A stretch of 64,000 nt of DNA from Clostridiales bacterium (GTDB lineage Bacteria > Bacillota > Clostridia > Lachnospirales > WQUN01). The DNA is taken from assembly GCA_031271295.1 (NCBI GenBank), contig JAISVZ010000032.1, forward strand, positions 1,869-65,868, given 5' to 3'. The notes beneath the pieces were generated by a model. That model saw nothing but the letters and a program-made list of their open reading frames with translations, did no database searches and was not told where the DNA came from. Made by a program: the position numbers and the translations under genes. This document shows, one piece after another, positions 1 to 52,412 of the stretch; within the stretch, counting starts at the first letter, position 1, and the number at the start of each line of letters is the position of its first letter.

Positions 1-467
1 TAAAAAAACTAAAACCCGGCGGGGAGGATATAGGCTTTGTGGGCGAGGTAACGGAAGTTGATAACAAAATAATTAAAACCCTTATCGACAACGATTTTAT
101 TCCGGTAATATCCCCCATAGGCATAGACGAAAACGGCGAAACCTACAACATTAACGCGGATTACGCGGCGGTTGCAATTGCAGGAGCGTTAAAAGCCGAA
201 AAGCTTGTGTTTTTAACGGACGTATCCGGCCTTTTAAGCGACAGGAACGACGCGGATAGCGTAATTACCAGAATTGAAGCGTCCCGCATTAGGGAACTTT
301 TGGCGGACGGAACAATTTCCGGCGGTATGATTCCCAAAATTCAGTGCTGCATGGCGGGAGTTGAAGCGGGAGTTGCGCATGTTCATATTTTAGACGGTCG
401 CGTGGAGCACGCGCTGATTCTTGAAATATTTACAAAAGAGGGTATCGGAACTATGATATACTCGTAA
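1..467 (+). CDS. argB: acetylglutamate kinase, C-terminal ~155 codons (5' end outside window)
   Basis: The frame is open from the window edge (from nt 3: KKLKPGGEDIGFVGEVTEVD...). IPVISPIGIDENGETYNINADYAAVAIAGALKAEKLVFLTDVSGLL and GGMIPKI are the conserved ArgB/amino-acid-kinase core. argD follows directly. Confidence 0.9.
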   Translation, partial: KKLKPGGEDIGFVGEVTEVDNKIIKTLIDNDFIPVISPIGIDENGETYNINADYAAVAIAGALKAEKLVFLTDVSGLLSDRNDADSVITRIEASRIRELLADGTISGGMIPKIQCCMAGVEAGVAHVHILDGRVEHALILEIFTKEGIGTMIYS

Positions 468-534
468 TTTGAAAGTTGTTTTTACAATTGCTTAAAAAGG
501 CGTGTAAATTTTAATCCTGGGAGGAGATTTTTAA

Positions 535-1692
535 ATGGAAAAAGGAATGCAGTATATAATGAACACATATTCACGCTTCCCCCTAAAACTTGTAAGGGGC
601 GAAGGCACATATGTTTACGATGAAAACGGCAAAAAATATTTGGATTTTGCGGCGGGGATAGCGGTAACGTCTTTGGGGCACGCAAACAAAAAACTTACCG
701 AGGCGATTAAAAGCCAAGCGGAAAAACTGCTTCACATATCCAATTTATATTGGAACGAGCCGCAAATTACGCTTGCGGAAAAGCTTGTTAAAAACAGCGC
801 GTTCGATAAGGTGTTTTTCTGTAACAGCGGCGCGGAATCCGTAGAGGCGGCGCTTAAACTTGCCCGCAAGTACGCATCTAAAAGCGGGAGCGGTAAATAT
901 GAAATTATAGCGATGAATAATTCCTTTCACGGTCGCACTTTGGGCGCGATAACCGCAACAGGGCAAAAAAAATACCGGGAAGGGCTTGCGCCGCTTTTAC
1001 CAGGAATAATCCACGCCGAATTTAACGATATTAAAAGCCTTGAAGCGCTTATAACGGACAAAACCTGCGCGGTACTTTTGGAACCCGTTCAGGGCGAATC
1101 CGGAATACACCCGGCGGATAAGGATTACCTTGTAAAGGTACGCGAATTATGCAACCAAAACAATTTGCTGTTAATATTCGACGAAGTGCAGTGCGGCGCG
1201 GGAAGGTGCGGAAGTTTGTTCGCGCACGAAATTTACGGAGTTTATCCCGATATTGCCGTTATGGCAAAAGGGCTTGCGGGCGGCGTTCCTATAGGCGCTA
1301 TGCTTGCAACCGAAAAAGCCGCGCAAGGCTTTAAACCGGGAGACCACGCTTCAACCTTTGGCGGAAACCCGCTTGCAACGGCTGCGGCAAATGTTGTTAT
1401 GGACGAGTTAACCGGCGGCTTACTTTCAAACGTAAAAAAACAGGGCGAATACTTAACTTTGAAATTAAAGGAGCTTGCGGCAAAACATAAATGCATTACC
1501 GAAGTCCGCGGGCTTGGGCTTATGCTTGGCATTGAACTAAACGTTCCCGCAAAGGATATTGTTGCAAAGTGCATCGAAAACGGGCTTTTACTTGTAAGCG
1601 CGGGCGAAAGGGTAATAAGGTTTGTGCCGCCTTTAACAGTTTCGAAAGAAGAAATTGACGAACTTGCGGGTATTTTGGATAGCTCTATTTAG
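535..1692 (+). CDS. argD: acetylornithine aminotransferase (class III PLP aminotransferase)
   Basis: 385 aa. Motifs FCNSGAESVEAALKLARKY, LLIFDEVQCGAGRCG and STFGGNPLA. GGGAGGAG RBS about 9 nt upstream of the ATG. Lies downstream of argB. Confidence 0.92.
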   Translation: MEKGMQYIMNTYSRFPLKLVRGEGTYVYDENGKKYLDFAAGIAVTSLGHANKKLTEAIKSQAEKLLHISNLYWNEPQITLAEKLVKNSAFDKVFFCNSGAESVEAALKLARKYASKSGSGKYEIIAMNNSFHGRTLGAITATGQKKYREGLAPLLPGIIHAEFNDIKSLEALITDKTCAVLLEPVQGESGIHPADKDYLVKVRELCNQNNLLLIFDEVQCGAGRCGSLFAHEIYGVYPDIAVMAKGLAGGVPIGAMLATEKAAQGFKPGDHASTFGGNPLATAAANVVMDELTGGLLSNVKKQGEYLTLKLKELAAKHKCITEVRGLGLMLGIELNVPAKDIVAKCIENGLLLVSAGERVIRFVPPLTVSKEEIDELAGILDSSI

Positions 1693-1700
1693 ATGAACTT

Positions 1701-1730
1701 AAAAAGGATACGCATTAGCGTATCCTTTTT
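1701..1730. terminator. bidirectional rho-independent terminator between convergent genes
   Basis: AAAAAGGATACGC-atta-GCGTATCCTTTTT: 13-bp arms with A-run and T-run flanks, between argD (+) and the 1749-2339 gene (-). Confidence 0.8.
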
Positions 1731-1748
1731 GATTTAAGTATGTTTTGA

Positions 1749-2339
1749 TTATTCCGTTTTAAACGAAGCTTCCCATTCGTCGAAACCTTTTCTTACCGCA
1801 TCCAACGTATCGTAGGAAATTTGCGGGAGTTTGTCGCCCCACAATTTTTCGGCTTCCGCAAAACCTTCTTCAACAGCGTCGCGAAGGGTAGCGATTTTGG
1901 AAGGATCCCCGCCGGAAAGAGCTTTCGCGAAGTTAAGAATTCTCTCGGAGGTTTGTTTTACGCCGAAATAACCGTCTTCACTAATTGCTTCCTCGGCTTC
2001 CGCTCTTGTTGCTTCGTCAACCTCAAGGCTTTCCCAAAAATCCTTAGACCACTGCATACCGCCCGCTTTTAACGCTTCGTTGCCCTGCTTGCCAAAAAGC
2101 TTAGTAACCAAGGTTTGAAGACGCGCTTCCGCGCTGTTTGCTTCGTCGATAGCGGCTTTAATTGCTTTAGGGTCAATCTCATACGTTTTAGAACCGGATT
2201 TTTCATACACCGCTGCCGCGCTGTTTAACAAGTCCTCAGTTTCATCCGCCGAAACAGCCGTGTTTGTGCTTGCCGCCGCGGATTGGTTTGTTTGTGCTGC
2301 AGTTGTTGCGTAATTGTTATTTACTGCTGCTACATCCAT
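1749..2339 (-). CDS. hypothetical protein, DUF5610-like C-terminal half
   Basis: 196-aa ORF with GGGAGATGA RBS before the ATG. N-terminus is low-complexity (A/T/Q/N/S rich). SERILNFAKALSGGDPSKIATLRDAVEEGFAEAEKLWG resembles DUF5610-type proteins, from memory only. Confidence 0.6.
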   Translation of the reverse strand: MDVAAVNNNYATTAAQTNQSAAASTNTAVSADETEDLLNSAAAVYEKSGSKTYEIDPKAIKAAIDEANSAEARLQTLVTKLFGKQGNEALKAGGMQWSKDFWESLEVDEATRAEAEEAISEDGYFGVKQTSERILNFAKALSGGDPSKIATLRDAVEEGFAEAEKLWGDKLPQISYDTLDAVRKGFDEWEASFKTE

Positions 2340-2505
2340 GTTGTCATCTCCCTTTTTTATTGATTTAAAACAGTTTTTGAACCTCTAATTTATTTATCGG
2401 TCAATTTTGGAAAACACGTAATATTATTTATAAAATAATTAAGAAATTATTTAGTGGTTTTTTAAATTATCATTGAAGCCAATACGCGGCTTAACCATAT
2501 ACTTA

Positions 2506-3141
2506 CTAAAAATTTAAAATCATGCTGTGAACGCTTTCGTACCCGATTGTGGTTTTGCCTCCGTGCCCCGGATAAACTACGGTTTCGGGCGCAAGCGTAA
2601 ATAATTTTTCCTTTATTGAACGGGCAAGCACTGGCAAATTTCCAGTTGGTAGCTGCGTTGTGCCAATGCCGTCTTTAAACAGCGTATCCCCCGAAATTAA
2701 AATATTTTCGTTTTCAAAATAAAAGCACAAACTGCCGGACGTATGCCCCGGCGTTGCAATTACCCTTATGTTAAACCCGGCAAGGGTTATATTTTGCGCG
2801 TCGTCAAGCCATATATCCGCTTCAAGCGCCGTGGTTTTGCCGTACATACCCGAAAGATTCATAGATGTATCCGATAAAATTTCCCGCTCGGCGGACGCGG
2901 CGTAAATTTTTACGCCATAGGTATCGCACACTTCCCGCGCCGCCATTATGTGGTCGAAATGCCCGTGTGTTAAAAAAACGGCTATGGGCGTAAGGTTAAG
3001 TTCGGCAAGCTTTTTTTGAATTTTCGGAAAATCCCCGGCGGGGTCCGCTATGATTGTTTCTTTGGTTTGCGTGTTTGAAATTAAATAGCAGTTTGCCTGC
3101 CACTCGGTTAAGGCAATTGTTGTTACAAAGATGTTTGGCAT
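2506..3141 (-). CDS. MBL-fold metallo-hydrolase (glyoxalase II-like)
   Basis: 211 aa. THGHFDH metal-binding motif, plus downstream TPGHTSGS and PGHG motifs typical of the metallo-beta-lactamase fold. Confidence 0.85.
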   Translation of the reverse strand: MPNIFVTTIALTEWQANCYLISNTQTKETIIADPAGDFPKIQKKLAELNLTPIAVFLTHGHFDHIMAAREVCDTYGVKIYAASAEREILSDTSMNLSGMYGKTTALEADIWLDDAQNITLAGFNIRVIATPGHTSGSLCFYFENENILISGDTLFKDGIGTTQLPTGNLPVLARSIKEKLFTLAPETVVYPGHGGKTTIGYESVHSMILNF

Positions 3142-3234
3142 GTGGGGTTCCTCGCTTTAAATTTTATTTTTGCCGCTTACTGCTTATATGTTTGAAACGG
3201 CTTCGCCGCTTATTGCATAAATTTCATTTCGCAG

Positions 3235-3720
3235 CTAATCTTGAATAAATTTCAGTAATTCATTAAACCATTCGGGCATAGTTTTTGTTTTTGAAATTAT
3301 TTCTCCGTTACGGTATTCGCCAACTTCGTTAAACCCATTTTCGTTATCGTAAAAATACGCTTCCATGCAATACGGTAGAACCGCTTTTAAATCCGCAAAC
3401 CTACCCGCAAAACGGCGGATAACATCGGATGCGGGAATATCATGCCCGCCCTTTTCAACGCGGTTTTTAATTCGCTTTATGCTTTCTTCGCAGGAATTTA
3501 AGCCTATATAAAACAAACGTATAAAGTATCCGCTCTCGTGCGCCGCCTTTACGGTTTTCTTTATAAAATTCCCGGATAACGTTGTTTCCTGAGTAAACGA
3601 AACGCCGTCGGATAACAACCGCCTAATCTTTTTTGCGGCTGTTTTGTTACCGTCATTTTGCGAAGCGTCAATGATTGCCGTAAAGCGTTGCCGCCAAACG
3701 CAGAAAAAATTACAACCTCG
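3235..3720 (-). pseudogene. zeta-toxin-like P-loop kinase remnant lacking the N-terminal Walker A region
   Basis: Translation ...TAIIDASQNDGNKTAAKKIRRLLSDGVSFTQETTLSGNFIKKTVKAAHESGYFIRLFYIGLNS...GGHDIPASDVIRRF matches the post-P-loop part of zeta-toxin/AAA kinase proteins. The frame is open upstream only to a TAA (complement of 3721-3723). It has no ATG/GTG before the TTG at 3618 and no GxxGxGK[ST]. Confidence 0.6.
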
Positions 3721-3898
3721 TTATACCATATATATACGTTTGGGGCAAGCTCTTAATCGGATAGAGGACGGAGGTGGACGGAGGGCATAGATCTTAGACT
3801 AATTCTTAGACTAAATCATAGGCTTAGACGTTGAAACCGAATCCTGCCGTAAATGTTTTTTGGATACCTCGCTCTTTTTTAATATTCGCAAATTATGT

Positions 3899-3927
3899 TT
3901 GACTTTGCCTTTTTGTAATGGTATAAA
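3899..3927 (+). promoter_or_regulatory. sigma-A type promoter upstream of the PfkB kinase gene
   Basis: TTGACT (3899-3904), 17-nt spacer, TATAAA (3922-3927). It sits about 120 nt upstream of the ATG at 4048. Confidence 0.5.
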
Positions 3928-4047
3928 GGCAGTAACGGCGCGGGAGTTTCATATGTTTTTTCAAAGAATAAAACCAGATTAGATACTTTCGCCGCGCACA
4001 AAGTACCCGCAGGCAGTATGCGGGCAGGGGAAAGTGAGGATTAGCCT

Positions 4048-4843
4048 ATGAAAAAAATACTTGCTATGACTTTCTGCTGCGTTGATATTTACCCCGGAAA
4101 AGGAATAATAACAGCGGGGGGAAATTCGCTTAATTTAGCTGCGGCTTGCTCAAAAACAAAGAAAGCCGATGTTTATTTGATGGGTAATATCGGAACGGAT
4201 ATTTATGCTGAAAAAATAAAGGAAAAGGCTGATGAATTCAATTTAAACCGCGAAAGGCTTTATGAGGTTGAGGGTAATACCGCAAGCAATAAATTATACC
4301 TCACCGAGGACGGCGACAGATACGAAAAAGACGACAGTTGGAACGGCGGCGTATATGATTATTTTAAATTATCGGCTGATGATGAAGCGTTTCTTAAAGA
4401 ATTTGACGTTGTAGCGACGACTGTCTGGGACCCTGCTTTCAAGCAAATTATTAATTTAAAGCGCAATTCAGATTTTCTGCTCGCGGTAGATTTTTCAGAC
4501 CATAGTCCGACTGATGAGTGGCTCGAATTTATACCTATGGATTGATTTATTTTTTATAAGCGCTCAAAATGAGCAATTACCGCTGCTTAAAAAATGGTCT
4601 TGTGAATTTCCCGCTTTGTTCGTAGCAACTTTGGCCGAACACGGAAGCGCTACGTATAAAGACGGAGAAGAGTATTCGTGCAGGGCAGTAAATGTATCGA
4701 AAATAGTTGATACAACAGGGTGCGGCGATTCATATCAAGGAGCTTTTATTGTTGATTATCTAATTAACAAGGATGTTGTTTCCGCTATGAAAGCAGGTTC
4801 CGAAGCCGCCGCCATTACTTTATCATTTGAAGGAGCGGTATAA
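4048..4843 (+). pseudogene. PfkB-family sugar kinase (fructoselysine/ketohexokinase-like), split by a +1 frameshift near 4514-4545
   Basis: ORF 4048-4545 carries the N-terminal part (CVDIYPGKGIITAGGNSLNLAAA). ORF 4514-4843 in the +1 frame carries the C-terminal part with the PfkB signature DTTGCGDSYQGAFI. Together they give one normal-length kinase. Confidence 0.75.
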
Positions 4844-4974
4844 GTGTTCTGAGCGTTTCGTGTTTTTCGGGTTCTTCGCCCGTCATTAAGCCCGCTTGAT
4901 AATTACGAAATATCAGCAAAGCGAATACCTTTAGCGGGCGTCCGCTTTCATTTTCTTCACCTTAAATATTACTG

Positions 4975-5330
4975 TCTTATTTTTGCGCAACGGCAATTTT
5001 GTTGCCGTCAGGGTCCGCAAATTGAAACGAATACGCGCCCCACTCTCTGCGTTCGGGCGGCGAAATTATTTCTATACCGGGTATTTCCCTTAGCAGCCGT
5101 TCGTATAGCGCGTCAACGTTTGCGGTAAAGCATTGCAGCCAGATATTCTTTTCGTTATCTGCCTTTATGCCACCCGGATCGTATATGGCAATTTTCCCGA
5201 AACCGTAATGGCTTCCTTCAACAAACGGTTCTTCTTGGAGAACAATTTTATAAAACTGCGCAAGACGGGGGGCATTATTGGTTATTATACATATTCCTCT
5301 AAACTCCATGATTATCCTCCTTAACTCTTT
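4975..5330. repeat. direct repeat copy 1 (VOC gene plus its RBS)
   Basis: Aligns with 8466-8821 at a constant offset of 3491 nt. I hand-counted 15 mismatches and no indels over 354 nt (4977-5330). Confidence 0.9.
4977..5309 (-). CDS. VOC (glyoxalase/bleomycin-resistance/dioxygenase) family protein, copy 1
   Basis: 110 aa from the ATG at 5309 (MEFRGICIITNNAPRLAQFY...), preceded by GGAGGATAATC. It ends in FADPDGNKIAV, typical of VOC proteins. The longer ORF to 5432 has no RBS, and the paralog at 8468-8800 starts at the equivalent ATG. Confidence 0.8.
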   Translation of the reverse strand: MEFRGICIITNNAPRLAQFYKIVLQEEPFVEGSHYGFGKIAIYDPGGIKADNEKNIWLQCFTANVDALYERLLREIPGIEIISPPERREWGAYSFQFADPDGNKIAVAQK

Positions 5331-5681
5331 GCAAAGAAAGGTTCTTTGACAAAACTGCTCGCAGCTTGCCTCTGCGATATCTCTATCGTAAAACCGATGC
5401 CCAAAGCAAACAACGAACGTCGCCGCTTGCATTTATTGTATCAAGAAAATGGAGGATGTCAAAAACACGATTACGACAACGTTGCAACATGTGTTTGCGA
5501 ATATGCCGCGGGAAGTAGAACGTTACTATTCACACTCTAACTGGAAATATGGGTTGCGACACCTTAGAATAATAGGCTGTCTAATATCGTTTTTCCGTTT
5601 TTGACAATTTGCCGTACGCTGCGGAGAACTAAACGGTTACAACTACCCGCACTTTTGGAGCAATATTCAGCAAGGGTTGTA

Positions 5682-5958
5682 GGAGGGCTTCGGCGCAAAT
5701 TATATCGCACAGCAATGTGCCGCCTGACGCTTCAGAACATTTTTGAGCGCACCAAGTTTGTAGAGAGTCCTATTTTTGCGGTTGCGCTCAAAAATATTCT
5801 TCTCGCTGCTTTGATGAACCAATTTTCGCCAATTAGTTGTTCGCAAAGATAAAGTATTGCGACGGCGAAAATTGTTTCCCCGCCGCGTGGCACAATCATG
5901 CTGTGCAATATAAGCTGCGCCGAAGCCCGGCAGCATGTTCTTTGCATGCAGCAAAAGG
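5682..5958. repeat. structured ~275-nt element, copy A (unknown family; possible ncRNA or non-autonomous element)
   Basis: Internally self-complementary: GGGCTTCGGCGCA/TGCGCCGAAGCCC outer stem, plus hairpins ACATTTTTGAGCGCA/TGCGCTCAAAAAT and CAATTTTCGCC/GGCGAAAATTG. Near-identical to the reverse complement of 6342-6615. Confidence 0.8.
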
Positions 5959-6103
5959 TTTACGAGAATTTTTATATTGCCAAATATTCTTGGGAAGCGT
6001 AATTATATCATCCTTGCAAGATAAGCGCCCTTTAGCAAGTGACAAGTACCGCAAACACTGAACAATATAAATATTTAGCTCTACTTCTATATGAACTCCT
6101 GGA

Positions 6104-6135
6104 ATAATTAGTGACATATATATGTCACTAATTAT
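6104..6135. repeat. perfect 32-bp AT-rich palindrome
   Basis: ATAATTAGTGACATATATATGTCACTAATTAT. All 16 position pairs checked as complementary. Lies between the two inverted structured elements. Confidence 0.9.
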
Positions 6136-6341
6136 CCCAAAATCCACACTTAATGCAATCTACATTTAAAAACTCTTAGCGCTGCATAACAGCTGAGAAA
6201 TTCAAATATGATATGCTTGATTAAACACGCAGGCAATAATTACGCCGTTTGCCTAATCTAATGAGTTGAATTTTATGTTACGGTACGCCTTTGTGCAAAC
6301 TTTACGTTGCCTGCAAAGGGTACACTTGATTACTGACGACT

Positions 6342-6615
6342 CCTTTCGCTTCCTGCAAAGAACATGCTGCCGGGCTTCGGCGCAGCTTATATTACACAGC
6401 ATAATTGTACCACGCGGCGGGGAAACAATTTTCGCCGTCAAAAAATAATCTCTGTGATACACTGGGGGCGAAAATTGGTTCACCAGAGCAGCGAGAAGAA
6501 TATTTTTGAGCGCACCCGCAAAAATAGAATCCTCTACAAACTTGGTGCGCTCAAAAATGTTCTGAAGCGTCAGGTGGCACATTGCTGTGCGATATAATTT
6601 GCGCCGAAGCCCTCC
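6342..6615. repeat. structured ~275-nt element, copy B (inverted relative to copy A)
   Basis: Its reverse complement aligns end to end with 5682-5958. Differences are concentrated in the predicted hairpin loops. Confidence 0.8.
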
Positions 6616-6832
6616 TATAAACCCTATAGAACAGCCACACAAAGTACGGGTAGTTATTAGCGGGATGTTGTTAGTGTACAGTTCTCTGTAGCGCACTATA
6701 AAGTTGTCAGTTACAAAAAAACGAAACTGTACAGCTTATTATTCAGAGGCATCGAAATCAGATTCGTTTTTTGGCGTGGGTGTGAATAGTAACAGTAGAA
6801 CCCTAAAAATTTTCAAAAAATTGATAAACCCA

Positions 6833-6861
6833 TTTACACGTGTTGTTTATACGTGTATAAT
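6833..6861 (+). promoter_or_regulatory. sigma-A type promoter of hicAB, with overlapping short repeats (possible operator)
   Basis: TTTACA (6833-6838), 17-nt spacer, TATAAT (6856-6861), 21 nt before the hicA ATG. The spacer contains TACACGTGT / TACGTGTA repeats. Confidence 0.6.
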
Positions 6862-6882
6862 GAGCGTAAGAGGTGAGGAACT

Positions 6883-7065
6883 ATGACTGCGAGAGATCTT
6901 TTAAAGATTTTAAATAAAGACGGCTGGTACAAGGTTGAACAAAACGGCTCCCATATTCAATTAGAGCATGACACGAAAAAGGGAAAGGTCACTGTCCCTA
7001 ACCATAACGGAGATTTGAAAGTTAAAACCTTAAACAGCATATTAAAACAAGCCGGGCTTAAATAA
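6883..7065 (+). CDS. hicA: type II toxin HicA (mRNA interferase)
   Basis: 60 aa. LLKILNKDGWYKVEQNGSHIQLEH...VTVPNH is the HicA dsRBD-like signature with the catalytic His context. GAGGTGAGG RBS. hicB follows. Confidence 0.85.
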   Translation: MTARDLLKILNKDGWYKVEQNGSHIQLEHDTKKGKVTVPNHNGDLKVKTLNSILKQAGLK

Positions 7066-7105
7066 CGCGGCTTGCCAATCACCAAAACGTATAAGGAGGC
7101 ATTTT

Positions 7106-7504
7106 ATGAGAAGAGTAACCTATTTTGCGGTATTTGAGCCATCGGATACGGGTTATAGTATCTACTTTCCGGATTTGCCCGGATGTATTTCCTGCGGGGA
7201 TAATATTGAACATGCAACAAAAATGGCGAAAGAAGCTTTGGGATTGCACTATTGGGGTATGGAGAAAGACGGCGATGAAATACCGAAACCAACAAAGCCA
7301 CCATTTGAGGATATGGAATCTGTAGATTTTGTGGTTCCTGTTGAAATTTTCCCGGACATCGTTAAAGATGCTATTGAAAACAGGGCAGTAAAAAAGACAC
7401 TTACAATTCCGCATTGGTTAAATGCGGAGGCGGAAGCGGCTAACGTTAATTTTTCTCAGCTTTTGCAAAATGCTTTAAAAGAATACCTAAATGTTAGCGC
7501 ATAG
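7106..7504 (+). CDS. hicB: type II antitoxin HicB
   Basis: 132 aa. The N-terminal YSIYFPDLPGCISCGDNIEHATKMAKEALGLH is the HicB RNase H-like fold motif. The C-terminal TLTIPHWLNAEAE... is an RHH-like DNA-binding tail. AAGGAGG RBS. Confidence 0.85.
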   Translation: MRRVTYFAVFEPSDTGYSIYFPDLPGCISCGDNIEHATKMAKEALGLHYWGMEKDGDEIPKPTKPPFEDMESVDFVVPVEIFPDIVKDAIENRAVKKTLTIPHWLNAEAEAANVNFSQLLQNALKEYLNVSA

Positions 7505-7506
7505 CC

Positions 7507-7543
7507 AAAAAGGGCGTTCCCTAAAAGGACGCCTTTTTATTTT
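7507..7543 (+). terminator. rho-independent terminator after hicB
   Basis: AAAAAGGGCGTTCC-ctaaaa-GGACGCCTTTTTATTTT directly after the stop codon. Confidence 0.75.
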
Positions 7544-7755
7544 GGCGAAGGAGTTAAGCGGCTGCCTTGTGAGTAGCCTGTCTTCTGATTAATAAAAACT
7601 AACGTAACAGAATGCCCGTTTTTGCGGAAAAAAGTATGACTAAGCCAATTGAAAAAGTTCCGTGTCTCTCATTGATAAAATTGAAATGGATTCCGCCTAT
7701 ATACTCACCTGAAAGCGTTTCAATTATGAAATCAGTTTTGTTTTAAGATTGCTTT

Positions 7756-8373
7756 TCAGCGACTGTATGAACAATCGTTAAATCGGGTTATTATGCGCTT
7801 TGCTCCAAATTCGGGAGATTCCTCGCGCATGAAAGACACGCTTCCCGAAGATCCCCACATACCGCATGTATTAAGAACCTCAACGTTTAAACCAAGCCAC
7901 AGCATGTTAAATATACCCAAAGAGATTCCATGAGCGACAATAATAATGTTTTCTTCCTTACGTGTCATTATCTCGTTTAAGAACTCACGGAGCCGGTTCC
8001 AAACATCCCTCATTGATTCGGCACCCGGATAGCTTTTATCATCAATTGTCTTCATAGAACCTAAGAATATTTTCCGAGATTCCTCTTTTGATACCCCGTT
8101 TGCGGTGCCGCAGTTTATTTCTCTTAACGCGGCGGTTAATACCGGCTTAATTCCTAAATGCCTGCCCGCGTTTTCTGCCGTTTGCTTTGCGCGAAGCAGG
8201 TCGGACGAGTACATGATATAGTTACTGCCGTCAATTTCCAAAGCAAGATTTTCGCCAATTTTGTCAGCCTGTTTAATTCCAAGCTCTGTTAAACTCCAAT
8301 CTCCCTGCCCACCAATCATTGCGTTAACATGGTGAACGGATTGAGTGTGCTGTATCGTGATTATATTTTTCAT
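7756..8373 (-). CDS. histidine phosphatase (phosphoglycerate mutase-like) family protein
   Basis: The start is revised to the ATG at 8373 (GGGGG RBS 8 nt upstream). The N-terminal segment ITIQHTQSVHH sits where the catalytic RHG motif normally lies, here as QHT. SSDLLRAKQTA and IIIVAHGISL are also present. Confidence 0.7.
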   Translation of the reverse strand: MKNIITIQHTQSVHHVNAMIGGQGDWSLTELGIKQADKIGENLALEIDGSNYIMYSSDLLRAKQTAENAGRHLGIKPVLTAALREINCGTANGVSKEESRKIFLGSMKTIDDKSYPGAESMRDVWNRLREFLNEIMTRKEENIIIVAHGISLGIFNMLWLGLNVEVLNTCGMWGSSGSVSFMREESPEFGAKRIITRFNDCSYSR

Positions 8374-8465
8374 TCTATACCCCCGAGTATCCTCTTTCAC
8401 AGTAAATGCGGCACGAACATATCATTCCTTCTCCTCGCGCTTAAAATTCGCGAGAAATATCACTT

Positions 8466-8821
8466 TCTTATTTTTGCGCAACGGCGATTTTGTTGCCGTC
8501 AGGGTCCGCAAATTGAAACGAATACGCGCCCCACTCTCTGCGTTCGGGCGGCGAAATTATTTCTATACCGGGTATTTCCCGAAGCAGCCGTTCGTATAGC
8601 GCGTCAACGTTTGCGGTAAAGCATTGCAGCCAGATATTCTTTTCGTTATCTGTATTTATACCACCCGGATCGTATATGGCAATTTTTCCAAAACCGTAAT
8701 GGCTTCCTTCAACAAACGGTTCTTTTTGCAGAACTATTTTATAAAACTGCGCAAGACGGGGGGCATTGTTGGTTGTTATACATATCCCTCCAAACTCCAT
8801 GATTATCCTCCTTAACTCTTT
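8466..8821. repeat. direct repeat copy 2 (VOC gene plus its RBS)
   Basis: See 4975-5330. Confidence 0.9.
8468..8800 (-). CDS. VOC family protein, copy 2
   Basis: 110 aa. Five amino-acid differences from copy 1 (R4G, I9T, E26K, K49N, A50T). Same RBS. Confidence 0.8.
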   Translation of the reverse strand: MEFGGICITTNNAPRLAQFYKIVLQKEPFVEGSHYGFGKIAIYDPGGINTDNEKNIWLQCFTANVDALYERLLREIPGIEIISPPERREWGAYSFQFADPDGNKIAVAQK

Positions 8822-9009
8822 TCATATTTTCGGCACAAAGCATCTTTCGCAAATCTTTCATCTTTACCCCAAATTATATCAGAGGGTTAATAAAATGTAA
8901 ACAGACTTGGCAGAATGCCCGTTTTTTAGGAAAAATTATGCCGCGTGCGGAAAACGTTTCAATTATGAAAGCCGGAGCTGATACATTCTGCTGTTGCGGT
9001 TTAAAACGC

Positions 9010-10401
9010 TTATTTTCCCGTCAGCGCGTTTTTCGCCAAATTACGTGTATCTTCATAGGAATCATAACGGCATTCCTCCAGTATGCTCTGCGGTATCACG
9101 CCGTTATATATCATGGTTTCAACAACCGCGAACCGGCAATGGGTACATTCGGTGTTTTTGTAAAAATGCAAAAGAATATCGCCGCAGGAACCGGACTTAA
9201 AACTGTTATATATTGATGTTATACTTTTGACCATATTAAAACTTAATCTTTTGGAACGCAGAACATGCTTGCGGATTAATGCCTCATCGTCGATTTCGAA
9301 GTTCGGCTCTAAAAGCGTAAGCGCATTTTCAACTTGACCGGCGTCAAATAACTGTAAAGCAAGAGAATGTATTTCCCTGTCCTTAAAGCGCGAAAGCGCT
9401 TTTGCCGTAACCTCGCGGATGCTTTCGTTTCCGGATTTCATATAAGCAAACAGCAGCTTTATATCAAGCGGGAAATCAACATAATTGAACGTCCGCAATA
9501 AAGCTGCCTTCATAAAATCCAACTCTTCATCAAATATAAATTCCGCAAGCCTGTCAATATCTTTTTTCTCCGCCATCCTCGCGAATTTTTTCGCATAAAG
9601 AGATATTCGAAGCGGGAAAGGGTTATCCTCCTTTGAAAGTTCTTCAGCCCGCTTTATCAAAAGTTCAACCGTTACAGTTTCTTCTTTATCCGCTTGAGGC
9701 TCCGTCTTGTATAACTGAGCAAAATCGTTTGCGTTCATAAGCTTAAGATTTGAGCGGCCGGCGCTTTCAGAACCCGCTTTATTGTATGCTTGGCTAAAGG
9801 CGGCAACAAACTCATTTTCCGAACTCTCAATGAATGAATATATCCTGTTCCCGAATTTTTCTTCAGCTGCGGATAAAAACATGTCACACCACAGGCAATC
9901 GTTTCTGCCGCGCTGTTTTATCATTTTGCCCATATCATTTACGCACCGCTTGAAGGATTCAAAGCCGCCACTTATCTTTCGCATCATCAGTTTTTCAAGC
10001 AGTTCGCGTTCACAATACCCGCAATTGAAACTCCGCATAAGCGGCAAACGCCTCTTTAGACCGTCATACTTTTTTTCCAACGCATTACCGGCTTTTTCAT
10101 ATCCGTCTGCGGCAAAACAACACAACAAATCAAAAAGCTGTTCGGAAAGACCCCAATACAGCCTCTTCGAAAACTTTTCCGCTATCCTATCCAAAAACAT
10201 ATCCGGGTTGGAGAATGTGTTTATAGCCGTATATAAATAAAACCCTTTGGTTCCTTCCGTCTGGGCATCATAAGCAATATCCTTAAGAGACGAGCGCATT
10301 ACAACGTTCCGGTACTCTTCCCTGTTAGGCTTTTCCGAAAGCTCAATTATTGCGCCGCCAAGCCCGCGGCGAAAGCTGCGGGTAAAACTTTTTAATGTCA
10401 T
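9010..10401 (-). CDS. hypothetical protein, helical-repeat-like C-terminus with Cys clusters
   Basis: 463-aa ORF with AGGGGTAGG RBS. Starts 13 nt after the stop of the upstream gene. Cys pairs NCGYCE, DCLWCD and CGD..x..ECTHC. The segment SIREVTAKALSRFKDREIHSLALQLFD looks HEAT/ARM-like. I recognise no family. Confidence 0.6.
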   Translation of the reverse strand: MTLKSFTRSFRRGLGGAIIELSEKPNREEYRNVVMRSSLKDIAYDAQTEGTKGFYLYTAINTFSNPDMFLDRIAEKFSKRLYWGLSEQLFDLLCCFAADGYEKAGNALEKKYDGLKRRLPLMRSFNCGYCERELLEKLMMRKISGGFESFKRCVNDMGKMIKQRGRNDCLWCDMFLSAAEEKFGNRIYSFIESSENEFVAAFSQAYNKAGSESAGRSNLKLMNANDFAQLYKTEPQADKEETVTVELLIKRAEELSKEDNPFPLRISLYAKKFARMAEKKDIDRLAEFIFDEELDFMKAALLRTFNYVDFPLDIKLLFAYMKSGNESIREVTAKALSRFKDREIHSLALQLFDAGQVENALTLLEPNFEIDDEALIRKHVLRSKRLSFNMVKSITSIYNSFKSGSCGDILLHFYKNTECTHCRFAVVETMIYNGVIPQSILEECRYDSYEDTRNLAKNALTGK

Positions 10402-10414
10402 AAAAGACCTACCC

Positions 10415-11098
10415 CTACTCCTTCAAGTAATACTCCACCGCTTCCTTAAACGTACCGTCCTCAATTTCGTTAAACCCTTCCTCGGTAAGAAAAAACACAC
10501 CCTTAGAAACCATGTAAAACCAACCGTAAAAATTATTTCTTAAAATATTTGCGGTATCCTTTGCGCAGCCGAATTTTTTCAGCTCCGCAACCGTCATCTC
10601 GCCCTGTTTGTAAAGCGTGCAGGCAATTTTTATGCTGCGTTCCCTAAACGCCGTTAAGAGCTTTACATTTACGCTTCCGCCAAGGTTGCCGTCTATTTTT
10701 CGGTTTTGCGATTCGTTAAGCACCCGGCGGCTGCGCTTGTTATCCAAGGTTTTATCCGCAACCGGCTCCGCCTCAATTTTAACCTGTTTGCCCGTATCTT
10801 CCATTTCGACGGTTATAAGCCCAATCTCCAGCTTTTTTACGATATGCAGTATATTCTTAAAATCCCGCCCGCGTTTTTTGGGGATAACCGCGTAAACATG
10901 CCTTGAAATTTTCTGCCTGTCTATAACCTGATACAAAAGTGTCATGTTAAAGCTTTTCTTAAATTCCAAAAGCAACATAACGCCGTCCTTTACGGCGGTA
11001 GCGTCTATCCCCATAACCTCGGAACGCACATCGTATCCCAAATCCTCAAAAAAACGTTTTACCGGCATGTACATATCTTTTTCAGAAAAATCCGGCAT
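10415..11098 (-). CDS. PD-(D/E)xK-like nuclease-fold protein with C-terminal wHTH-like region (DUF2161-like)
   Basis: 227 aa. The N-terminus DMYMPVKRFFEDLGYDVRSEVMGIDATAVKDGVMLLLEFKKSF gives a D...E-x-K arrangement, as in restriction-endonuclease-like folds and as I recall for DUF2161. Its ATG directly abuts the TAA of the deacetylase gene. Confidence 0.55.
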   Translation of the reverse strand: MPDFSEKDMYMPVKRFFEDLGYDVRSEVMGIDATAVKDGVMLLLEFKKSFNMTLLYQVIDRQKISRHVYAVIPKKRGRDFKNILHIVKKLEIGLITVEMEDTGKQVKIEAEPVADKTLDNKRSRRVLNESQNRKIDGNLGGSVNVKLLTAFRERSIKIACTLYKQGEMTVAELKKFGCAKDTANILRNNFYGWFYMVSKGVFFLTEEGFNEIEDGTFKEAVEYYLKE

Positions 11099-11893
11099 TT
11101 ATATCACCATTTCAATGCCTGCCGGAATTTCAACCGCCTGTCCGTCTATTTCCGCCGCTACATTCATTGCGGATTTATTCAAAACCATTTTTAAATCCGC
11201 CGAAAACCTCAGCGAGCGGTACGCGTTTAAATAATCGCATATTTCAATATTTGTGGCAAACCACACATCCTCACGGCCGCTGACCTTTTTGCAGAACTCC
11301 TCCATCATATCCCAGTTGCCGTCCCTTTCGAACTCGAAGCTGTGCCCCCATATGTAAAACAGGCGAGACGAATATATATTTTTATCATCCAAAAAAATAT
11401 CGGTAAGCTCGTGCAGAGATTCGTTATGGTGGCATGTGGCGTTCCAGCGAAGAAAATCGTCCGGAAGATGGAAATATTTCGTGGAGTGTACCGTTCGCGA
11501 ATACTCCATGCCAAGGCTTTTTATCATTTCCACCACAAAATCGTTCACCGAACCGTACGGGTAGGACATTCCGCGAATTATTTTCCCGGTTAAACGCTCT
11601 AAAATTTCGCGGTCTTTCATAATTTCGTCAATAAGTTTTTCCCTTGGGCAAACCGTAAGCGATTGGTGCGTAAGTGCGTGCGCCGAAATTTCGTGCCCTT
11701 TAAAGAGCGGAATAATTTCATCGGCGCAAAGCCTGCCATCGGTACCCAAAAGCCCGCCGTTTAAATGGAACGTTCCCTTTAAATCGTACTTATTTAGCAT
11801 TTCAACCAACTTGACATCCGGCTTAAAACCGTCGTCGTAACTTAGTGTTATAGCTTTCTTTTTCCCTCCCGGAAACAAACAGTTAATAGGCAT
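11099..11893 (-). CDS. polysaccharide deacetylase (NodB homology domain) family protein
   Basis: 264 aa. ITLSYDDG (the DD metal motif), H-x-x-x-H context SAHALTHQSL, and MSYPYG. Confidence 0.8.
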   Translation of the reverse strand: MPINCLFPGGKKKAITLSYDDGFKPDVKLVEMLNKYDLKGTFHLNGGLLGTDGRLCADEIIPLFKGHEISAHALTHQSLTVCPREKLIDEIMKDREILERLTGKIIRGMSYPYGSVNDFVVEMIKSLGMEYSRTVHSTKYFHLPDDFLRWNATCHHNESLHELTDIFLDDKNIYSSRLFYIWGHSFEFERDGNWDMMEEFCKKVSGREDVWFATNIEICDYLNAYRSLRFSADLKMVLNKSAMNVAAEIDGQAVEIPAGIEMVI

Positions 11894-12040
11894 AAAATCC
11901 CTCCGTTTTTTATTGTAATTTAAGCCTCACGCATAACCATAGCCATCAACCCCGGACAAGTGCATTATACCGCTAAGTATAGACGCCGGTCAATGGAATT
12001 AAACCGATGTTGAAAGTTATAGGAGTGTAAACAGAAGCAT

Positions 12041-14539: not shown

Positions 14540-14602
14540 AATGCCCACTCCCTCGTACAAGCTTTGCCTTCTTAATTGTATGAGGAAGAAAAAAATAATA
14601 TG

Positions 14603-16513: not shown

Positions 16514-16575
16514 AAAGATCCTCCTATGATGCAAAAAAAGGAGGGAGAATAATCTCCCCCCTTGGAAAAAACAGA

Positions 16576-16830
16576 TTACAACCTAACAAACCACGTAGCA
16601 ACTGTTACGGCAAATAAAACGGCAATGCCGATTTTTGTGTACTTTTCCAACGAGCCTTCCAAAGAACGGCCCTTGTTTTTATCCCAATAAGTTTGAGACT
16701 GCCCCATACCGGCAAGCCCGCCAAGCCCTGCGGAACGTTTTTTTTGCAAAAGAATAAATGTTACAACCGCAGCGCAACTTAAGATGTACACAATGGAAAT
16801 AATAATAACTAACACGTTCAAAATAAGCAC
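16576..16830 (-). CDS. secG: preprotein translocase subunit SecG
   Basis: Small two-TM protein. LLQKKRSAGLGGLAGMG is the SecG loop signature. The exact start is uncertain: GTG 16830, TTG 16821 or GTG 16815. Confidence 0.8.
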   Translation of the reverse strand: MLILNVLVIIISIVYILSCAAVVTFILLQKKRSAGLGGLAGMGQSQTYWDKNKGRSLEGSLEKYTKIGIAVLFAVTVATWFVRL

Positions 16831-16901
16831 CTCTTTGAAATTTGTTTTTGCTTAAACTGCGTGCAGTATAGCATATCCGAGCTATGATAGCAAGATTATT
16901 T

Positions 16902-18155
16902 TTAGTTAATAACCAGCGGTGCGTTCGACGTTTCAAGGCTGAGCTTTATAATTTTTGACGCCTCGCTGTAATTAATGGATTTAGCCTCCGCAAACGACGG
17001 GCTGTTTGCAATATAGTTAAGCCCTGTAAGCCCTATTTTAATGTTTGAAAGTGTGGCGTGCGCCTTTAAATGATACCCCAAATCCGGCGAGGACGGAAGG
17101 TTAAGCGTCATTTTGGCGTTACTTGTTTCAACCGCCCAAATGTATTCCGGTTTTGCGCCGAAGTTTGCTACATTCATAGTAATATTTCCGCTTAAAGCGG
17201 TAAGAATAAGGTTTTGAATATCCATTCCCTCCGCGAAAACATTTCCGTTAAAATTCTCAAATTTGCCGTTTACGCTTTTTAAATTGCTCAGTCGCATTTC
17301 GCCGTTACTGCCGTCCGCCTTGATATCGTTCGATGCAATATCCTTCAAAACGGTAGAGCCGCTTAAATTATTTACGCTAAGGTAATCGCTTTCGGTTGCG
17401 GAAATGTTTATCGCGCCGTTAACGGTAGATACCGCTATGCTGTTAAACATTGCGCTTGGCACAAAAGCGTCTATGCACACCCTGTCGAACTCGTCCTCTT
17501 CGTAATTTAAAAAATACTTGCTTCCAAGCTGCATTATTTCAATATGAGCCGACGGTTTTTTGCTGCGGTAAAAAATACGGGCGCTTATTTTATCCCCGTT
17601 GTAGCCTTGAAGCAAAACATCGCCGTTTAGGCCGGAAAAATTAAGCTCGTTATAACCGGAGGTAACCTTTGCCTCAAAAACGCGTTCTATCATATCCGCA
17701 TAACCCAGTTTTACAGGAGCGGAAGCAGGCTTTGGCACAGAAGTATACCTACCCGCCGGCGCCGCGTGAGGCGCGGAGGATAAAGATTTTGATATTTTAT
17801 CCGCAACCTTTCCGGTGGTTTCCGCAACGGTTTCCGTAAGCTTATAAAGCTTGGGTTCCATATCTCTGGCAAATGTTTCAAATTTGCGGGATAAATCGCT
17901 TGTAAAATCGTCCATGCCGCCGCGAGAGGTTGCCTCAGCGCTTCGCGCTGCCGCAGGCGGCCTTTGGTTTTGCGCGTATCCGGCGCTTGGTTTTGGCGTG
18001 TCAAAGCGTTCGCGCGGTTTCGGCATTTCCGTTCTAACTTGCGCACGCGGTTTTTTATCCCCATCTTCTATTGCGCTTAAAAGCCTTGAAGCTTCCTGCG
18101 CGTCAATTTTTCTTTCCTCAAGCATTTTAAGTATCATCATTTTTTCGCTGCTCAT
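16902..18155 (-). CDS. DUF4097-like beta-repeat protein with YvlB/LiaX-type N-terminal helix
   Basis: The start is revised to the ATG at 18155 (GGAGG 7 nt upstream). The N-terminus is ILKMLEERKIDAQEASRLLSAIE, followed by a P/A-rich linker. The C-terminal half has repeated NG..x..L beta-strand units typical of DUF4097 putative adhesins. Confidence 0.65.
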   Translation of the reverse strand: MSSEKMMILKMLEERKIDAQEASRLLSAIEDGDKKPRAQVRTEMPKPRERFDTPKPSAGYAQNQRPPAAARSAEATSRGGMDDFTSDLSRKFETFARDMEPKLYKLTETVAETTGKVADKISKSLSSAPHAAPAGRYTSVPKPASAPVKLGYADMIERVFEAKVTSGYNELNFSGLNGDVLLQGYNGDKISARIFYRSKKPSAHIEIMQLGSKYFLNYEEDEFDRVCIDAFVPSAMFNSIAVSTVNGAINISATESDYLSVNNLSGSTVLKDIASNDIKADGSNGEMRLSNLKSVNGKFENFNGNVFAEGMDIQNLILTALSGNITMNVANFGAKPEYIWAVETSNAKMTLNLPSSPDLGYHLKAHATLSNIKIGLTGLNYIANSPSFAEAKSINYSEASKIIKLSLETSNAPLVIN

Positions 18156-52360: not shown

Positions 52361-52412
52361 TTGTTTATAATAAAAAAACAATATAGTTTAGCTGATTGCT
52401 ACTAATCGTTAC

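Follow-up and report, generated by a model that had tools for sequence, protein, structure and literature searches.

Bacterial MITEs and other non-autonomous IS derivatives, such as Correia/NEMIS, RUP, MITEAba12, and the Tn3-derived TIMEs, have terminal repeats and a target duplication and carry no transposase gene. They insert in intergenic regions beside promoters, show strong foldback potential, and break assemblies at their ends. The same properties were observed at positions 5522–6793 of the window, by which we mean the whole 64-kb stretch of Clostridiales DNA that was analyzed. However, bacterial MITEs are usually 100–500 bp long with termini of 15–40 bp, whereas the element described here comprises 1272 bp, and its arms of about 440 nt each (437 and 452 nt) occupy ~70% of that length. 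It also differs from them in that its best-conserved part is an internal three-way-junction module and not the termini. We know of no parent IS for it.

In architecture, the element resembles the long-TIR or foldback transposons of eukaryotes, namely Foldback (FB), Galileo of the P superfamily, and MULEs of the Mutator/IS256 superfamily, which have very long, internally repetitive arms around a short middle. Their target duplications are 7–11 bp long, and non-autonomous members are numerous. Another trait of eukaryotic foldback elements, a varying number of sub-repeats in the inner arm, is suggested here by CTTTGCAGG- and CCTGCAGG-type modules in the translations of homologs. The likeness to the bacterial element is one of architecture alone.

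Structured modules of ~150–300 nt inside a mobile element, with loops varying on a conserved scaffold, are also known from the bridge/seek RNAs of IS110/IS1111 and the TnpB/IscB omega-RNAs of IS200/IS605. Such guide RNAs, however, adjoin their own recombinase or nuclease gene, of which none was detected here in the flanking ORFs scanned, and their diversity is matched to targets, whereas one loop of the present module (loop 2, described below) occurs in few related variants. The bridge-RNA and omega-RNA models of Rfam gave no match here, and to our knowledge, IS110/IS1111 and IS200/IS605 elements have neither long terminal inverted repeats nor an 8-bp duplication. Likewise, the single-strand origins (sso) of rolling-circle plasmids are orientation-specific multi-hairpin DNA modules of 150–300 nt with conserved unpaired motifs. 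Here, in contrast, a Rep gene, a nick site, and a plasmid context are all lacking, no plasmid or phage record is similar, and the module is present twice, in inverted orientation, within a unit that has terminal repeats and a target duplication at its borders.

Termini and probable insertion site

The element ends in a perfect 14-nt terminal inverted repeat, which is GTTACTATTCACAC on the left (5522–5535, plus strand) and lies on the minus strand on the right (6780–6793, reading GTGTGAATAGTAAC on the plus strand). Each terminal repeat is directly abutted by one copy of the 8-bp direct repeat AGTAGAAC (5514–5521 and 6794–6801, both on the plus strand), which is a putative target-site duplication. 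Both features had been missed in the preliminary description of this DNA. When the 2.3-kb region was shuffled 2000 times, 14-nt inverted pairs occurred at a mean of 0.015 per shuffle, and in 0 of the 2000 shuffles was such a pair abutted by an 8-bp direct repeat. Excision of the element in silico left an intergenic region of ~170 nt with both flanking promoter-like sites intact. These sites, both outside the element, are located at 5462–5435 for the glyoxalase-family gene on the left (4977–5309, minus strand) and at 6833–6861 for hicA on the right (6883–7065, plus strand), beyond which lies hicB (7106–7504, plus strand). The predicted junction without the element reads GGGAAGTAGAACCCTAAAAATT.

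An independent run of the same strain (SRR14710911) yielded a Logan contig, L009, which is 100% identical to the window. It begins at 6764, a position exactly 30 nt inward of the right terminus. Because Logan assemblies use k = 31 (PMC12424806), this start lies k−1 inside the terminus, and the assembly graph thus branches exactly at the predicted element/flank junction. Such a branch would be as expected if this end of the element were joined to more than one flank. The other end of L009, at 8078, is not at any repeat, and the position of its start could in principle be a coincidence. Within the 64-kb window, the element is present in one copy. Literature searches with the terminus GTTAC... 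and an 8-bp duplication led to no assignable IS family, nor can the termini be assigned to any IS family known to us.

Inverted arms, core modules, and central segment

Two blocks of inverted arms were found by a repeat search, 5674–5830/6467–6623 (157 nt, 94% identity) and 5844–5958/6342–6456 (115 nt, 88%), and pairwise alignment of core A with the reverse complement of core B gave a mean identity of 91% (about 91–94% over 5674–5958 versus 6342–6623). The inverted pair of multi-hairpin copies noted in the preliminary description is, therefore, real. However, the limits that were given to the copies, 5682 and 6615, are incorrect, since the homology continues outward at 50–70% identity to 5522 and 6793; it is also weakly present inward to about 6020/6300. 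Along the arms, the identity was 50–70% over the outer 155 nt, 90–100% over the core, and 53% in loop 2, and the homology was unbroken from the termini inward. This profile is the pattern that would be expected of one ancestral arm under uneven constraint. The outer diverged left arm (5536–5673, plus strand), which is 50–70% identical to the right arm, retains the conserved islands GAATAATA.GCTGT, TCGTTTTT, TGACAA, GAGAACT, and AACTACCCG.ACTTT, and its counterpart in the arm-to-arm alignment is the outer diverged right arm (6624–6779, minus strand). Within a 1272-bp element with long inverted arms, the two copies represent the strongly conserved inner portion of each arm.

Each core forms a predicted three-way junction. 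In core module A (5674–5958, plus strand), the outer stem pairs 5685–5714 with 5899–5928, hairpin 1 pairs 5734–5753 with 5781–5800, and hairpin 2 pairs 5816–5830 with 5864–5878. In core module B (6342–6623), which has the inverted orientation (minus strand), the corresponding pairs are 6372–6401/6583–6612, 6497–6516/6544–6563, and 6419–6436/6467–6484. As reported before, neither copy has a mismatch in the outer stem GGGCTTCGGCGCA/TGCGCCGAAGCCC, which extends to 30 nt at 87–90% when its TTATAT and GCACAGCA continuations are included. Both copies also contain the two inner hairpins, hairpin 1 with 18–20 bp and hairpin 2 with the identical 11-bp stem CAATTTTCGCC/GGCGAAAATTG. The three-way-junction fold itself was borne out, as all strands of both copies beat their dinucleotide shuffles (z = −6.9 to −11.2; 0/200 shuffles as good). 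The fold energies of core A were −130.5 kcal/mol on the minus strand (z = −11.2) and −120.7 kcal/mol on the plus strand (z = −6.9), and the z-scores of core B were −9.3 on the plus strand and −7.65 on the minus strand. When the whole element was folded as single-stranded DNA, it paired from terminus to terminus with a minimum free energy of −403 kcal/mol.

The outer 3′ arm indeed carries three substitutions (5891, 5897, and 5906), all of them C>T and two of them opposite G. One detail of the earlier comparison between the copies needed correction. The loops of hairpin 2, which had been called completely different, are alignable at about 53% identity; the loop of arm A (5831–5863, plus strand) comprises 33 nt, represents an A-like variant, and has its own 6-bp mini-stem TCGCAA/TTGCGA, and that of arm B (6437–6466, minus strand) comprises 30 nt and represents a B-like variant. 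The best-conserved stretch of the family, 5784–5830 on the plus strand, covers the hairpin-1 3′ arm, the junction, and the hairpin-2 5′ arm. It translates as ALKNILLAAL.NQFSP, with 14 of 16 positions invariant in a 14-row alignment of homolog translations, and the same DNA is readable in another frame in the homologs P0023 and P0026. The junction is conserved as sequence and not just as structure.

A scan of the whole window against Rfam 15 at the gathering threshold gave 0 matches, and a permissive scan of 5000–7300 gave only chance-level miRNA and snoRNA matches (E ≥ 0.1), in line with the earlier statement that the element fits no known RNA family. A hammerhead was considered and rejected. 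With UUGAUGA (arm A) and CUGGUGA (arm B) at the junction, each arm differs from CUGANGA at a position that is conserved; moreover, hairpin 2 is not followed by GAAA, and none of the hammerhead models scored.

Between the cores lies an AT-rich central segment of 383 bp (5959–6341), whose edges are weakly homologous between the arms and which contains CTTTGCAGG-type sub-repeats and a GTAATTATATCATCCTTGCAAG island. Two CTTTGCAGG units are located 42 nt apart in arm B, and further units are implied by homolog translations; Tandem Repeats Finder reported no array in the window. The 32-bp palindrome at 6104–6135 is perfect, as described, and belongs to an extended palindrome of 40 bp with one mismatched pair (6100–6139). 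Another palindrome, at 55799–55829, was examined as a possible relative because it has CTTCGGCGCA in common, but it is an ordinary terminator-like hairpin just downstream of ORF 54543–55772 and beside ORF 55889–56374.

A pattern search detected a perfect extended −10 element, TGATATAAT, at 6002–6010 on the minus strand, which is a putative promoter; such sites numbered 5 in the 64 kb versus 3 expected by chance. A transcript from TGATATAAT would start near 5995, proceed leftward across core A, and leave the element. This island is kept in the P0027 and P0029 translations. When both orientations were scanned for sigma-70 promoters and intrinsic terminators, no convincing dedicated one was found, and the extended −10 was the sole strong element. 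Because the insertion lies between divergent promoters and carries this strong outward −10, the expression of the glyoxalase gene may be altered.

Coding capacity and related loci

In accordance with the preliminary description, which saw no transposase, reverse transcriptase, or nuclease gene nearby, a scan of 18 ORFs between 39 and 18161 detected no domain of these kinds. Domains of DEDD or serine recombinases, TnpB, IscB, and Cas proteins were likewise absent from this region (Pfam, 18 ORFs; NCBIfam, 5 ORFs). Four of the 18 ORFs belonged to no family (1749–2339, 8938–9216, 9010–10401, and the arm ORF 6253–6696), among which 9010–10401 and 1749–2339 matched neither Pfam nor NCBIfam and had no obvious transposase character. 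The ORFs inside the element are all ≤147 aa, mirror each other, and have no Pfam match. We agree that they are translated palindromes, since the frames of the homologous ORFs change inside loops 1 and 2 (e.g., P0007–P0012, P0008, P0017, P0019, P0020, and P0023) and the substitutions between A and B are distributed 4/3/3 over the codon positions. In addition, arm A has a stop codon in loop 2, in a frame that is open in arm B. A protein-coding gene pair was ruled out by these frame shifts, the stop, and the lack of 3-nt periodicity; because its reading frames shift between homologs, the element, which contains no credible protein gene, is non-coding.

Homologous arm ORFs were found as about 27 translations on at least 20 other contigs of uncultured Clostridiales, where the arms have differing inner and outer neighbors. 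These homologs were compared as ORF translations, and the DNA comparison covered the two arms of the window. One NCBI MAG contains two "partial" loci, Clostridiales bacterium LBS21_08780 and LBS21_16110, and on contig 38570, as in the window, an A-like arm is accompanied by a B-like one. Across the ~27 arm ORFs, loop 2 occurs as few related, mutually alignable variants (A-like, B-like, and intermediates). The homolog translations also contain recognizable islands from outside the core, namely LPAL (P0002, corresponding to AACTACCCGCACTT), LQP (P0020), and VIISSLQ (P0027/P0029).

Further searches were conducted in other collections. When plasmid and phage records were searched by blastn, with the core and with the entire element as queries, the only match was a chance one of 56 nt. 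A 20-base degenerate pattern of the most conserved stretch matched 8 times among GTDB species representatives, all by chance according to blastn. Among JGI metagenomes, a peptide pattern gave 144 candidates with 0 confirmed, and the hairpin-2 stem pattern gave 88 loci that were unrelated hairpins as judged by blastn and the reading of nine, several being from one repeat family. In viral contigs, the degenerate core pattern matched 0 times and the hairpin-2 pattern once, in a stretch for which blastn detected no similarity to the core.

Origin and possible function of the element

Taken as a whole, 5522–6793 is probably one copy of a non-autonomous foldback-type DNA transposon, from a small family so far seen only in uncultured Clostridiales, which inserted between the glyoxalase and hicAB promoters and duplicated AGTAGAAC. 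As in foldback elements, the arms make up most of its length and the single-stranded form pairs end to end; as in MITEs, it has terminal inverted repeats, a direct duplication just outside them, and no internal transposase gene. MITEs are usually under about 500 bp, however, so that an element of 1272 bp is no MITE in the strict sense, and being larger than the textbook bacterial MITE counts against our reading. The preliminary description had offered three options, namely a structured ncRNA, a MITE-like element, and a cruciform or single-strand-origin-like site. The MITE-like option is the one supported by the evidence, but the unit is the whole 1272 bp with its terminal repeats and 8-bp duplication and not the 275-nt hairpin module, which has no duplication at its own borders.

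We propose that the insertion would have taken place in the short spacer that separates the divergent promoters of the glyoxalase gene and of hicAB, with duplication of the 8-bp target. The 14-bp termini, together with sub-terminal sequence, would be recognized by a transposase whose gene lies elsewhere and which would be a DDE enzyme (cut-and-paste or copy-paste) making 8-bp staggered cuts. The three-way-junction core of each arm may be a cis-acting module kept by selection for mobility; most likely, it would serve as a group of inverted half-sites for protein binding or as a hairpin extruded in single-stranded DNA, and loop 2 and the outer arm would drift much faster than the core. However, the distance of the core from the ends is 155–437 nt, and its conservation exceeds that of the sub-terminal sequence, which would be unusual for a pure transposase-binding role. 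It is conceivable, although quite improbable, that the core is the active nucleic-acid part of transposition, either as an outward-transcribed structured RNA or as extruded single-stranded DNA needed by the transposase, with loop 2 giving the left and right arms different specificities. We are not familiar, from any described IS family, with a TIR/TSD-forming bacterial transposon that needs a conserved folded RNA or DNA module.

The stability of the folds also leads to another explanation, in which the cores are genes for a new structured ncRNA that is the cargo or functional part of the element. This RNA would be transcribed outward (arm A from the minus strand, arm B from the plus strand), the three-way junction would be its functional fold, and loop 2 would serve arm-specific recognition. 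We regard this as unlikely, although several observations fit it. The folds have high stability, which is slightly greater in the outward orientation, and a reading of the stems identified three non-Watson-Crick positions, common to both arms, which are G-U outward and C-A in the other orientation. Nevertheless, the arm-specific C>T changes create G-U pairs in the opposite orientation, so that the strand signal is mixed, and both strands fold almost equally well, like those of any DNA palindrome. On the minus strand, core A is preceded at a distance of about 45 nt by the perfect extended −10 (6010–6002), whose island P0027/P0029 retain, but the counterpart of this site in arm B is degenerate (TGATTACTG), and there is neither a −35 element nor a terminator after the core. 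The unpaired junction hardly varies within the family, which points to something beyond hairpin stability, and with 0 Rfam matches, such an RNA would be new. A more specific proposal, that of a programmable guide-type RNA, was not supported, since the loop 2 variants are related and alignable, the ORFs scanned encode no recombinase, TnpB, or Cas protein, and terminal inverted repeats with a duplication are not the signature of IS110 or IS200/605. On reading the sequence, loop 2 of either arm showed no match to the target AGTAGAAC or its flanks. The case, therefore, gives no support at present for a new programmable guide-RNA system.

Other explanations concern the extent and the mobility of the unit. 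It is very improbable that only the 244-nt palindromic core (5685–5928) is mobile, as a small MITE with 30-bp terminal repeats of which two copies came to be inverted by chance. Its own 30-nt inverted termini at 87–90% would suit this idea, as would the finding that ORF-based homolog searches detect mainly the core; however, no direct repeat is present at its borders (TTGTAGGA versus GGCAGCAT in arm A and ATGCTGCC versus TCCTATAA in arm B), its flanks are common to both arms on both sides, out to the termini and inward to about 6020/6300, and the conserved islands outside it recur in homolog translations. An even poorer account is given by a local inverted duplication through template switching or hairpin repair, without mobility or function. 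Exact terminal repeats with an abutting 8-bp direct repeat are unexpected in that case, as are homologous arms on at least 20 other contigs with differing neighbors and a Logan contig break exactly k−1 from the terminus, and the difference between a core that is 90–100% identical and an outer arm and loop 2 that are 50–70% identical requires constraint rather than neutral decay. That the window holds a single copy, that the element has no gene, and that central and nested palindromes are typical by-products of such events speak for it. The central segment could also be an invertible DNA switch, which flips between the arms and alters the expression of the glyoxalase gene or hicAB, as might be thought from the long inverted repeats around 383 bp of AT-rich DNA and from the one strong outward −10 on one side only. 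Site-specific switches, however, generally have inverted repeats of roughly 10–35 bp, whereas the arms here are ~440 nt long and structured. No invertase or recombinase domain was detected in the 18 ORFs scanned between 39 and 18161 (four of which match no family), and a switch leaves both the target-site duplication and the three-way junctions inside the arms unexplained, which makes it extremely improbable. Homologous recombination could invert any inverted repeat, but as a side effect.

If the element is indeed a non-autonomous foldback transposon, it would represent a previously uncatalogued family of such bacterial transposons, with a foldback/long-TIR architecture that is common in eukaryotes and rarely described in bacteria. 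The strongest constraint acts on a three-way-junction module of 244–285 nt that has no Rfam match and lies well inside each arm, which would provide a lead to a mode of transposase-DNA or transposase-RNA recognition. The same reading would also account for spurious "hypothetical proteins" that recur as a family in annotated metagenomes; one of them has even been given an enzyme name.

Boundaries of a probable mobile element and its putative target-site duplication

We analyzed the repeat by an inverted-repeat search, which returned two arm segments, 5674-5830/6467-6623 (157 nt, 94%) and 5844-5958/6342-6456 (115 nt, 88%), interrupted only by the loop of hairpin 2 (loop 2). Pairwise alignment of copy A (left arm) with the inverted copy B (right arm) gave 91% overall identity, and thus the inverted pair of multi-hairpin copies claimed in the preliminary description was borne out. 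Its repeat ends were misplaced, however, as inverted homology goes on ~155 nt further outward at 50-70% identity, broken by indels but including several conserved islands. The arms end in a perfect 14-nt terminal inverted repeat (TIR), GTTACTATTCACAC at 5522-5535, with its complement at 6780-6793, and an 8-bp direct repeat, AGTAGAAC, abuts both TIRs (5514-5521 and 6794-6801). Shuffling the 2.3-kb region 2000 times yielded 0.015 inverted pairs of 14 nt per shuffle, none of them with an abutting 8-bp direct repeat. Transposition with staggered cutting of the target classically leaves such perfect TIRs bordered by a short direct repeat. The TIRs and the putative target-site duplication (TSD) therefore delimit an element of 1272 bp, ~70% of which consists of the arms (5522-5958 and 6342-6793). 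Without 5522-6801, the intergenic region is ~170 nt, and neither the glyoxalase promoter-like site (5462-5435) nor that of hicAB (6833-6861) is disrupted. In single-stranded form, the element is predicted to fold back over its whole length, terminus to terminus.

An exact-match look-up of HicA yielded a Logan contig from a separate sequencing run, SRR14710911, which corresponds to 6764-8078 of the window at 100% identity and whose first base lies exactly 30 nt inward of the predicted right terminus; the chance of a contig end at that position is ~1 in a thousand. Logan contigs are built from a de Bruijn graph with k = 31 (PMC12424806). A contig starting k-1 bases before a junction implies a graph branch at that junction, so that the last 31-mer wholly within the element has more than one continuation in the SRR14710911 sample. 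The left end, which has no more than 14 nt in common with the right end, cannot produce this branch. From this single contig end, we infer that the right end of the element adjoins several different flanks, at least two.

We consider it probable that the finding is, for the most part, explained as the pair of long inverted arms belonging to a new family of foldback-type transposons that lack a transposase, in uncultured Clostridiales. The closest match, functionally and architecturally, was found among non-autonomous transposons with TIRs and TSD. The earlier suggestion of a non-autonomous MITE-like element holds for the TIRs, the TSD and the lack of a gene, but the element is too large for a strict MITE. 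Its very long arms around a short middle, which may contain sub-repeats, recall those of foldback or long-TIR elements of eukaryotes (FB, Galileo, MULEs), a likeness of architecture and not homology. An RNA-guided transposon system was rejected: the flanking ORFs scanned included no recombinase, TnpB or IscB gene, loop 2 variation is limited and related, not free, and the element has TIRs and a TSD, which to our knowledge such systems do not have. Nor was the structure taken for an invertase switch, for two protein-coding genes or for a member of any Rfam family. From 'GTTAC...' and the 8-bp duplication alone, no IS family could be assigned to the presumed partner transposase.

Fold, loop variation and proposed role of the core

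Within each arm lies a core (core A, 5674-5958; core B, 6342-6623), in which the outer stem is 30 nt with its first 13 bp perfect (GGGCTTCGGCGCA/TGCGCCGAAGCCC), hairpin 1 is 18-20 bp, and hairpin 2 has an identical 11-bp stem in both copies. In agreement with the fold first proposed, RNA folding of both strands of both copies gave a three-way junction (-118 to -131 kcal/mol; z-scores between -6.9 and -11.2), and none of the shuffles was equally stable. The perfect 32-bp palindrome at 6104-6135, also recognized before, extends to 40 bp. The view that no known RNA family is involved was upheld, since Rfam gave no match at the gathering threshold across the window, and permissive thresholds returned chance-level matches only.

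Loop 2 had been called completely different between the copies; it is indeed diverged (33 nt in arm A, 30 nt in arm B) yet alignable at ~53% identity. Homologs carry a few related forms, all mutually alignable. Some are A-like (translations such as ISCSQR., ISYAQRLC and TSCAQRLS), others B-like (PVYHRDYF, LVYRRDYF), and two arm ORF translations, P0026 and P0029, are intermediate; contig 38570 has one A-like and one B-like arm, like the window. P0022, a near-twin of arm A, requires four or five nucleotide changes in the 33-nt loop compared with two amino-acid changes across ~45 flanking residues. These forms and P0022 indicate that loop 2 evolves faster than the scaffold, yet is no free-form cassette. 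The speculation on a programmable guide-type RNA was not supported, and the simplest reading of these sequences is relaxed constraint on the loop plus an old difference between left and right arms.

Along what was ancestrally a single arm, identity between the two arms is 100% in the terminal 14 nt, 50-70% in the next 155 nt, 90-100% in the core (5676-5958), which begins abruptly on its outer side, and 53% in loop 2. Gene conversion between the arms fits this profile poorly, since a loop of 30 nt inside a tract of 285 nt would not have escaped it; purifying selection acting on stems and unpaired junctions is the better explanation. As selection on a non-autonomous element acts on its mobilisability, we prefer to regard the core as a putative cis-acting mobilisation module, a proposal weakened by the core, and not the sub-terminal region, being best conserved. 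As all three stems are variations of ...A/T-rich...GCGC (AATTTGCGCC, TTTTTGAGCGC, AATTTTCGCC), such a module might act as an array of inverted half-sites or, alternatively, as a structure extruded in single-stranded DNA.

It seems rather unlikely that the core is instead a structured RNA transcribed outward (arm A from the minus strand, arm B from the plus strand). This orientation folds slightly better, and in our reading of the stems three non-canonical positions common to both arms are G-U outward and C-A otherwise, but the C>T changes specific to one arm speak for the other strand, and two DNA copies give a covariation test no power. Likewise, a perfect extended -10 (TGATATAAT, 6010-6002, minus strand) lies ~45 nt upstream of core A in the outward direction, whereas its arm B counterpart is degenerate and the terminator scan found no terminator. 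The same motif occurs at four other sites in the window, two of them in front of genes; at 6010-6002 it could at least provide promoter activity directed out of the element and toward the glyoxalase gene. The remaining interest is in the unusually well-conserved three-way-junction core, whose candidate roles are a DNA site, a single-stranded DNA structure or an RNA.

Relatives of the arms and their non-coding status

Gene callers translated the palindrome in other assemblies, so protein searches could be used as a proxy for DNA homologs. Three word-indexed protein searches and one exhaustive HMMER search returned ~27 homologous arm ORFs besides the window's own, on at least 20 contigs, nearly all from JGI metagenomes. 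Two loci, LBS21_08780 and LBS21_16110, belong to one NCBI MAG (Clostridiales bacterium), and both are 'partial', i.e. at contig ends. The family is small, with matches in 10 of 1.84 billion cluster representatives. By blastn, element and core were absent from plasmid and phage records, and viral contigs gave one stretch only, without blastn similarity to the core. A genome-collection scan returned chance matches only, one metagenome scan gave candidates of which none was confirmed, and another gave loci without similarity to the element, several of one unrelated repeat family. Exact-protein look-ups for contigs found nothing on record for 10 of 11 proteins.

An unrelated repeat, reading ...CCCCGACTTAAAAGTCGGGG...CAATTTTCGCCCTAAAGGGCGGAGCTTTAAACTCAGGCGAAAATTGAG, lies within ~100 nt of many contig ends in metagenomes Ga0066637, Ga0210017, Ga0210019 and Ga0210057 (loci L010, L011, L020, L021, L039 and many others from the hairpin-2 stem scan), and is followed in L039 by tandem copies of ~40 nt. 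This repeat appears to be a distinct element in many copies, with only the 11-nt stem in common with the window element.

Judged by their sequences, the arm ORFs are not genes. The reading frame jumps within loops 1 and 2 among homologs (P0007-P0012, P0008, P0017, P0019, P0020, P0023, P0026 and others), starts and ends vary, a stop codon interrupts arm A where arm B stays open, Pfam has no family for them, and substitutions between the arms are even across codon positions, all as expected of the translated palindromes suspected earlier. A 47-nt stretch, 5784-5830, which runs from the 3' arm of hairpin 1 through the junction into the 5' arm of hairpin 2, is near-invariant in every homolog where readable, including those in another frame. 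Islands outside the core recur in homolog translations as LPAL (P0002), LQP (P0020) and VIISSLQ (P0027/P0029), indicating that the family-level unit exceeds the core. P0005 (JGI), a spurious 84-aa ORF from a homologous arm, bears the source label 'cyclopropane fatty-acyl-phospholipid synthase-like methyltransferase'; this enzyme name is an annotation artefact.

Neighbourhood of the element

The element is flanked by a glyoxalase-family gene (minus strand) and by hicA/hicB, whose adjacency was confirmed by the domain scan. The 18 ORFs scanned (39-18161) yielded no domain of a transposase, reverse transcriptase, recombinase or nuclease, consistent with the preliminary description, which had noted no adjacent gene for a transposase, reverse transcriptase or nuclease; four of the 18 match no family. 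Glyoxalase/bleomycin-resistance-family paralogs at 4977-5309 and 8468-8800, both on the minus strand, flank the hicAB region, and the perfect extended -10 of the element recurs in front of the latter (TGATATAAT, 8873-8881). A pfkB-family sugar kinase (4048-4843), probably a frameshifted pseudogene, is split into two overlapping ORFs, 4048-4545 for the N-terminal and 4514-4843 for the C-terminal part of the profile. A short ORF at 3235-3618 matches the zeta-toxin profile only weakly and in part (E 1e-3, positions 93-161 of the profile) and may be what remains of a toxin gene. Along with hicAB and the split kinase, it suggests a decaying or accessory region. The 463-aa ORF at 9010-10401 (minus strand) has no Pfam or NCBIfam match and no obvious transposase features; it adjoins a DUF2161 PD-(D/E)XK-like gene (10415-11098).

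Further along the window, large ORFs lie almost all on the minus strand from ~7.7 kb to 26443, and long ORFs on the plus strand from 26504 to ~45.6 kb. The switch at ~26,400-26,500, with divergent transcription beside a FliD-like gene, coincides with a local minimum of cumulative GC skew. A GC-rich hairpin at 55795-55835 (CCGGCTGCGCCGAAGCTT...AGCTTCGGCGCAGCCGG), just downstream of ORF 54543-55772 and beside ORF 55889-56374, has the outer-stem string CTTCGGCGCA, but was rejected as a relative of the element, being an ordinary terminator-like structure. The region 48,000-55,000 is a low-GC island (30-39% compared with ~44% elsewhere) that encodes an ABC ATPase, a DUF1430-like permease and a BlaR1/BlaI-type sensor-repressor pair (52637-54296), and it may have been horizontally acquired.
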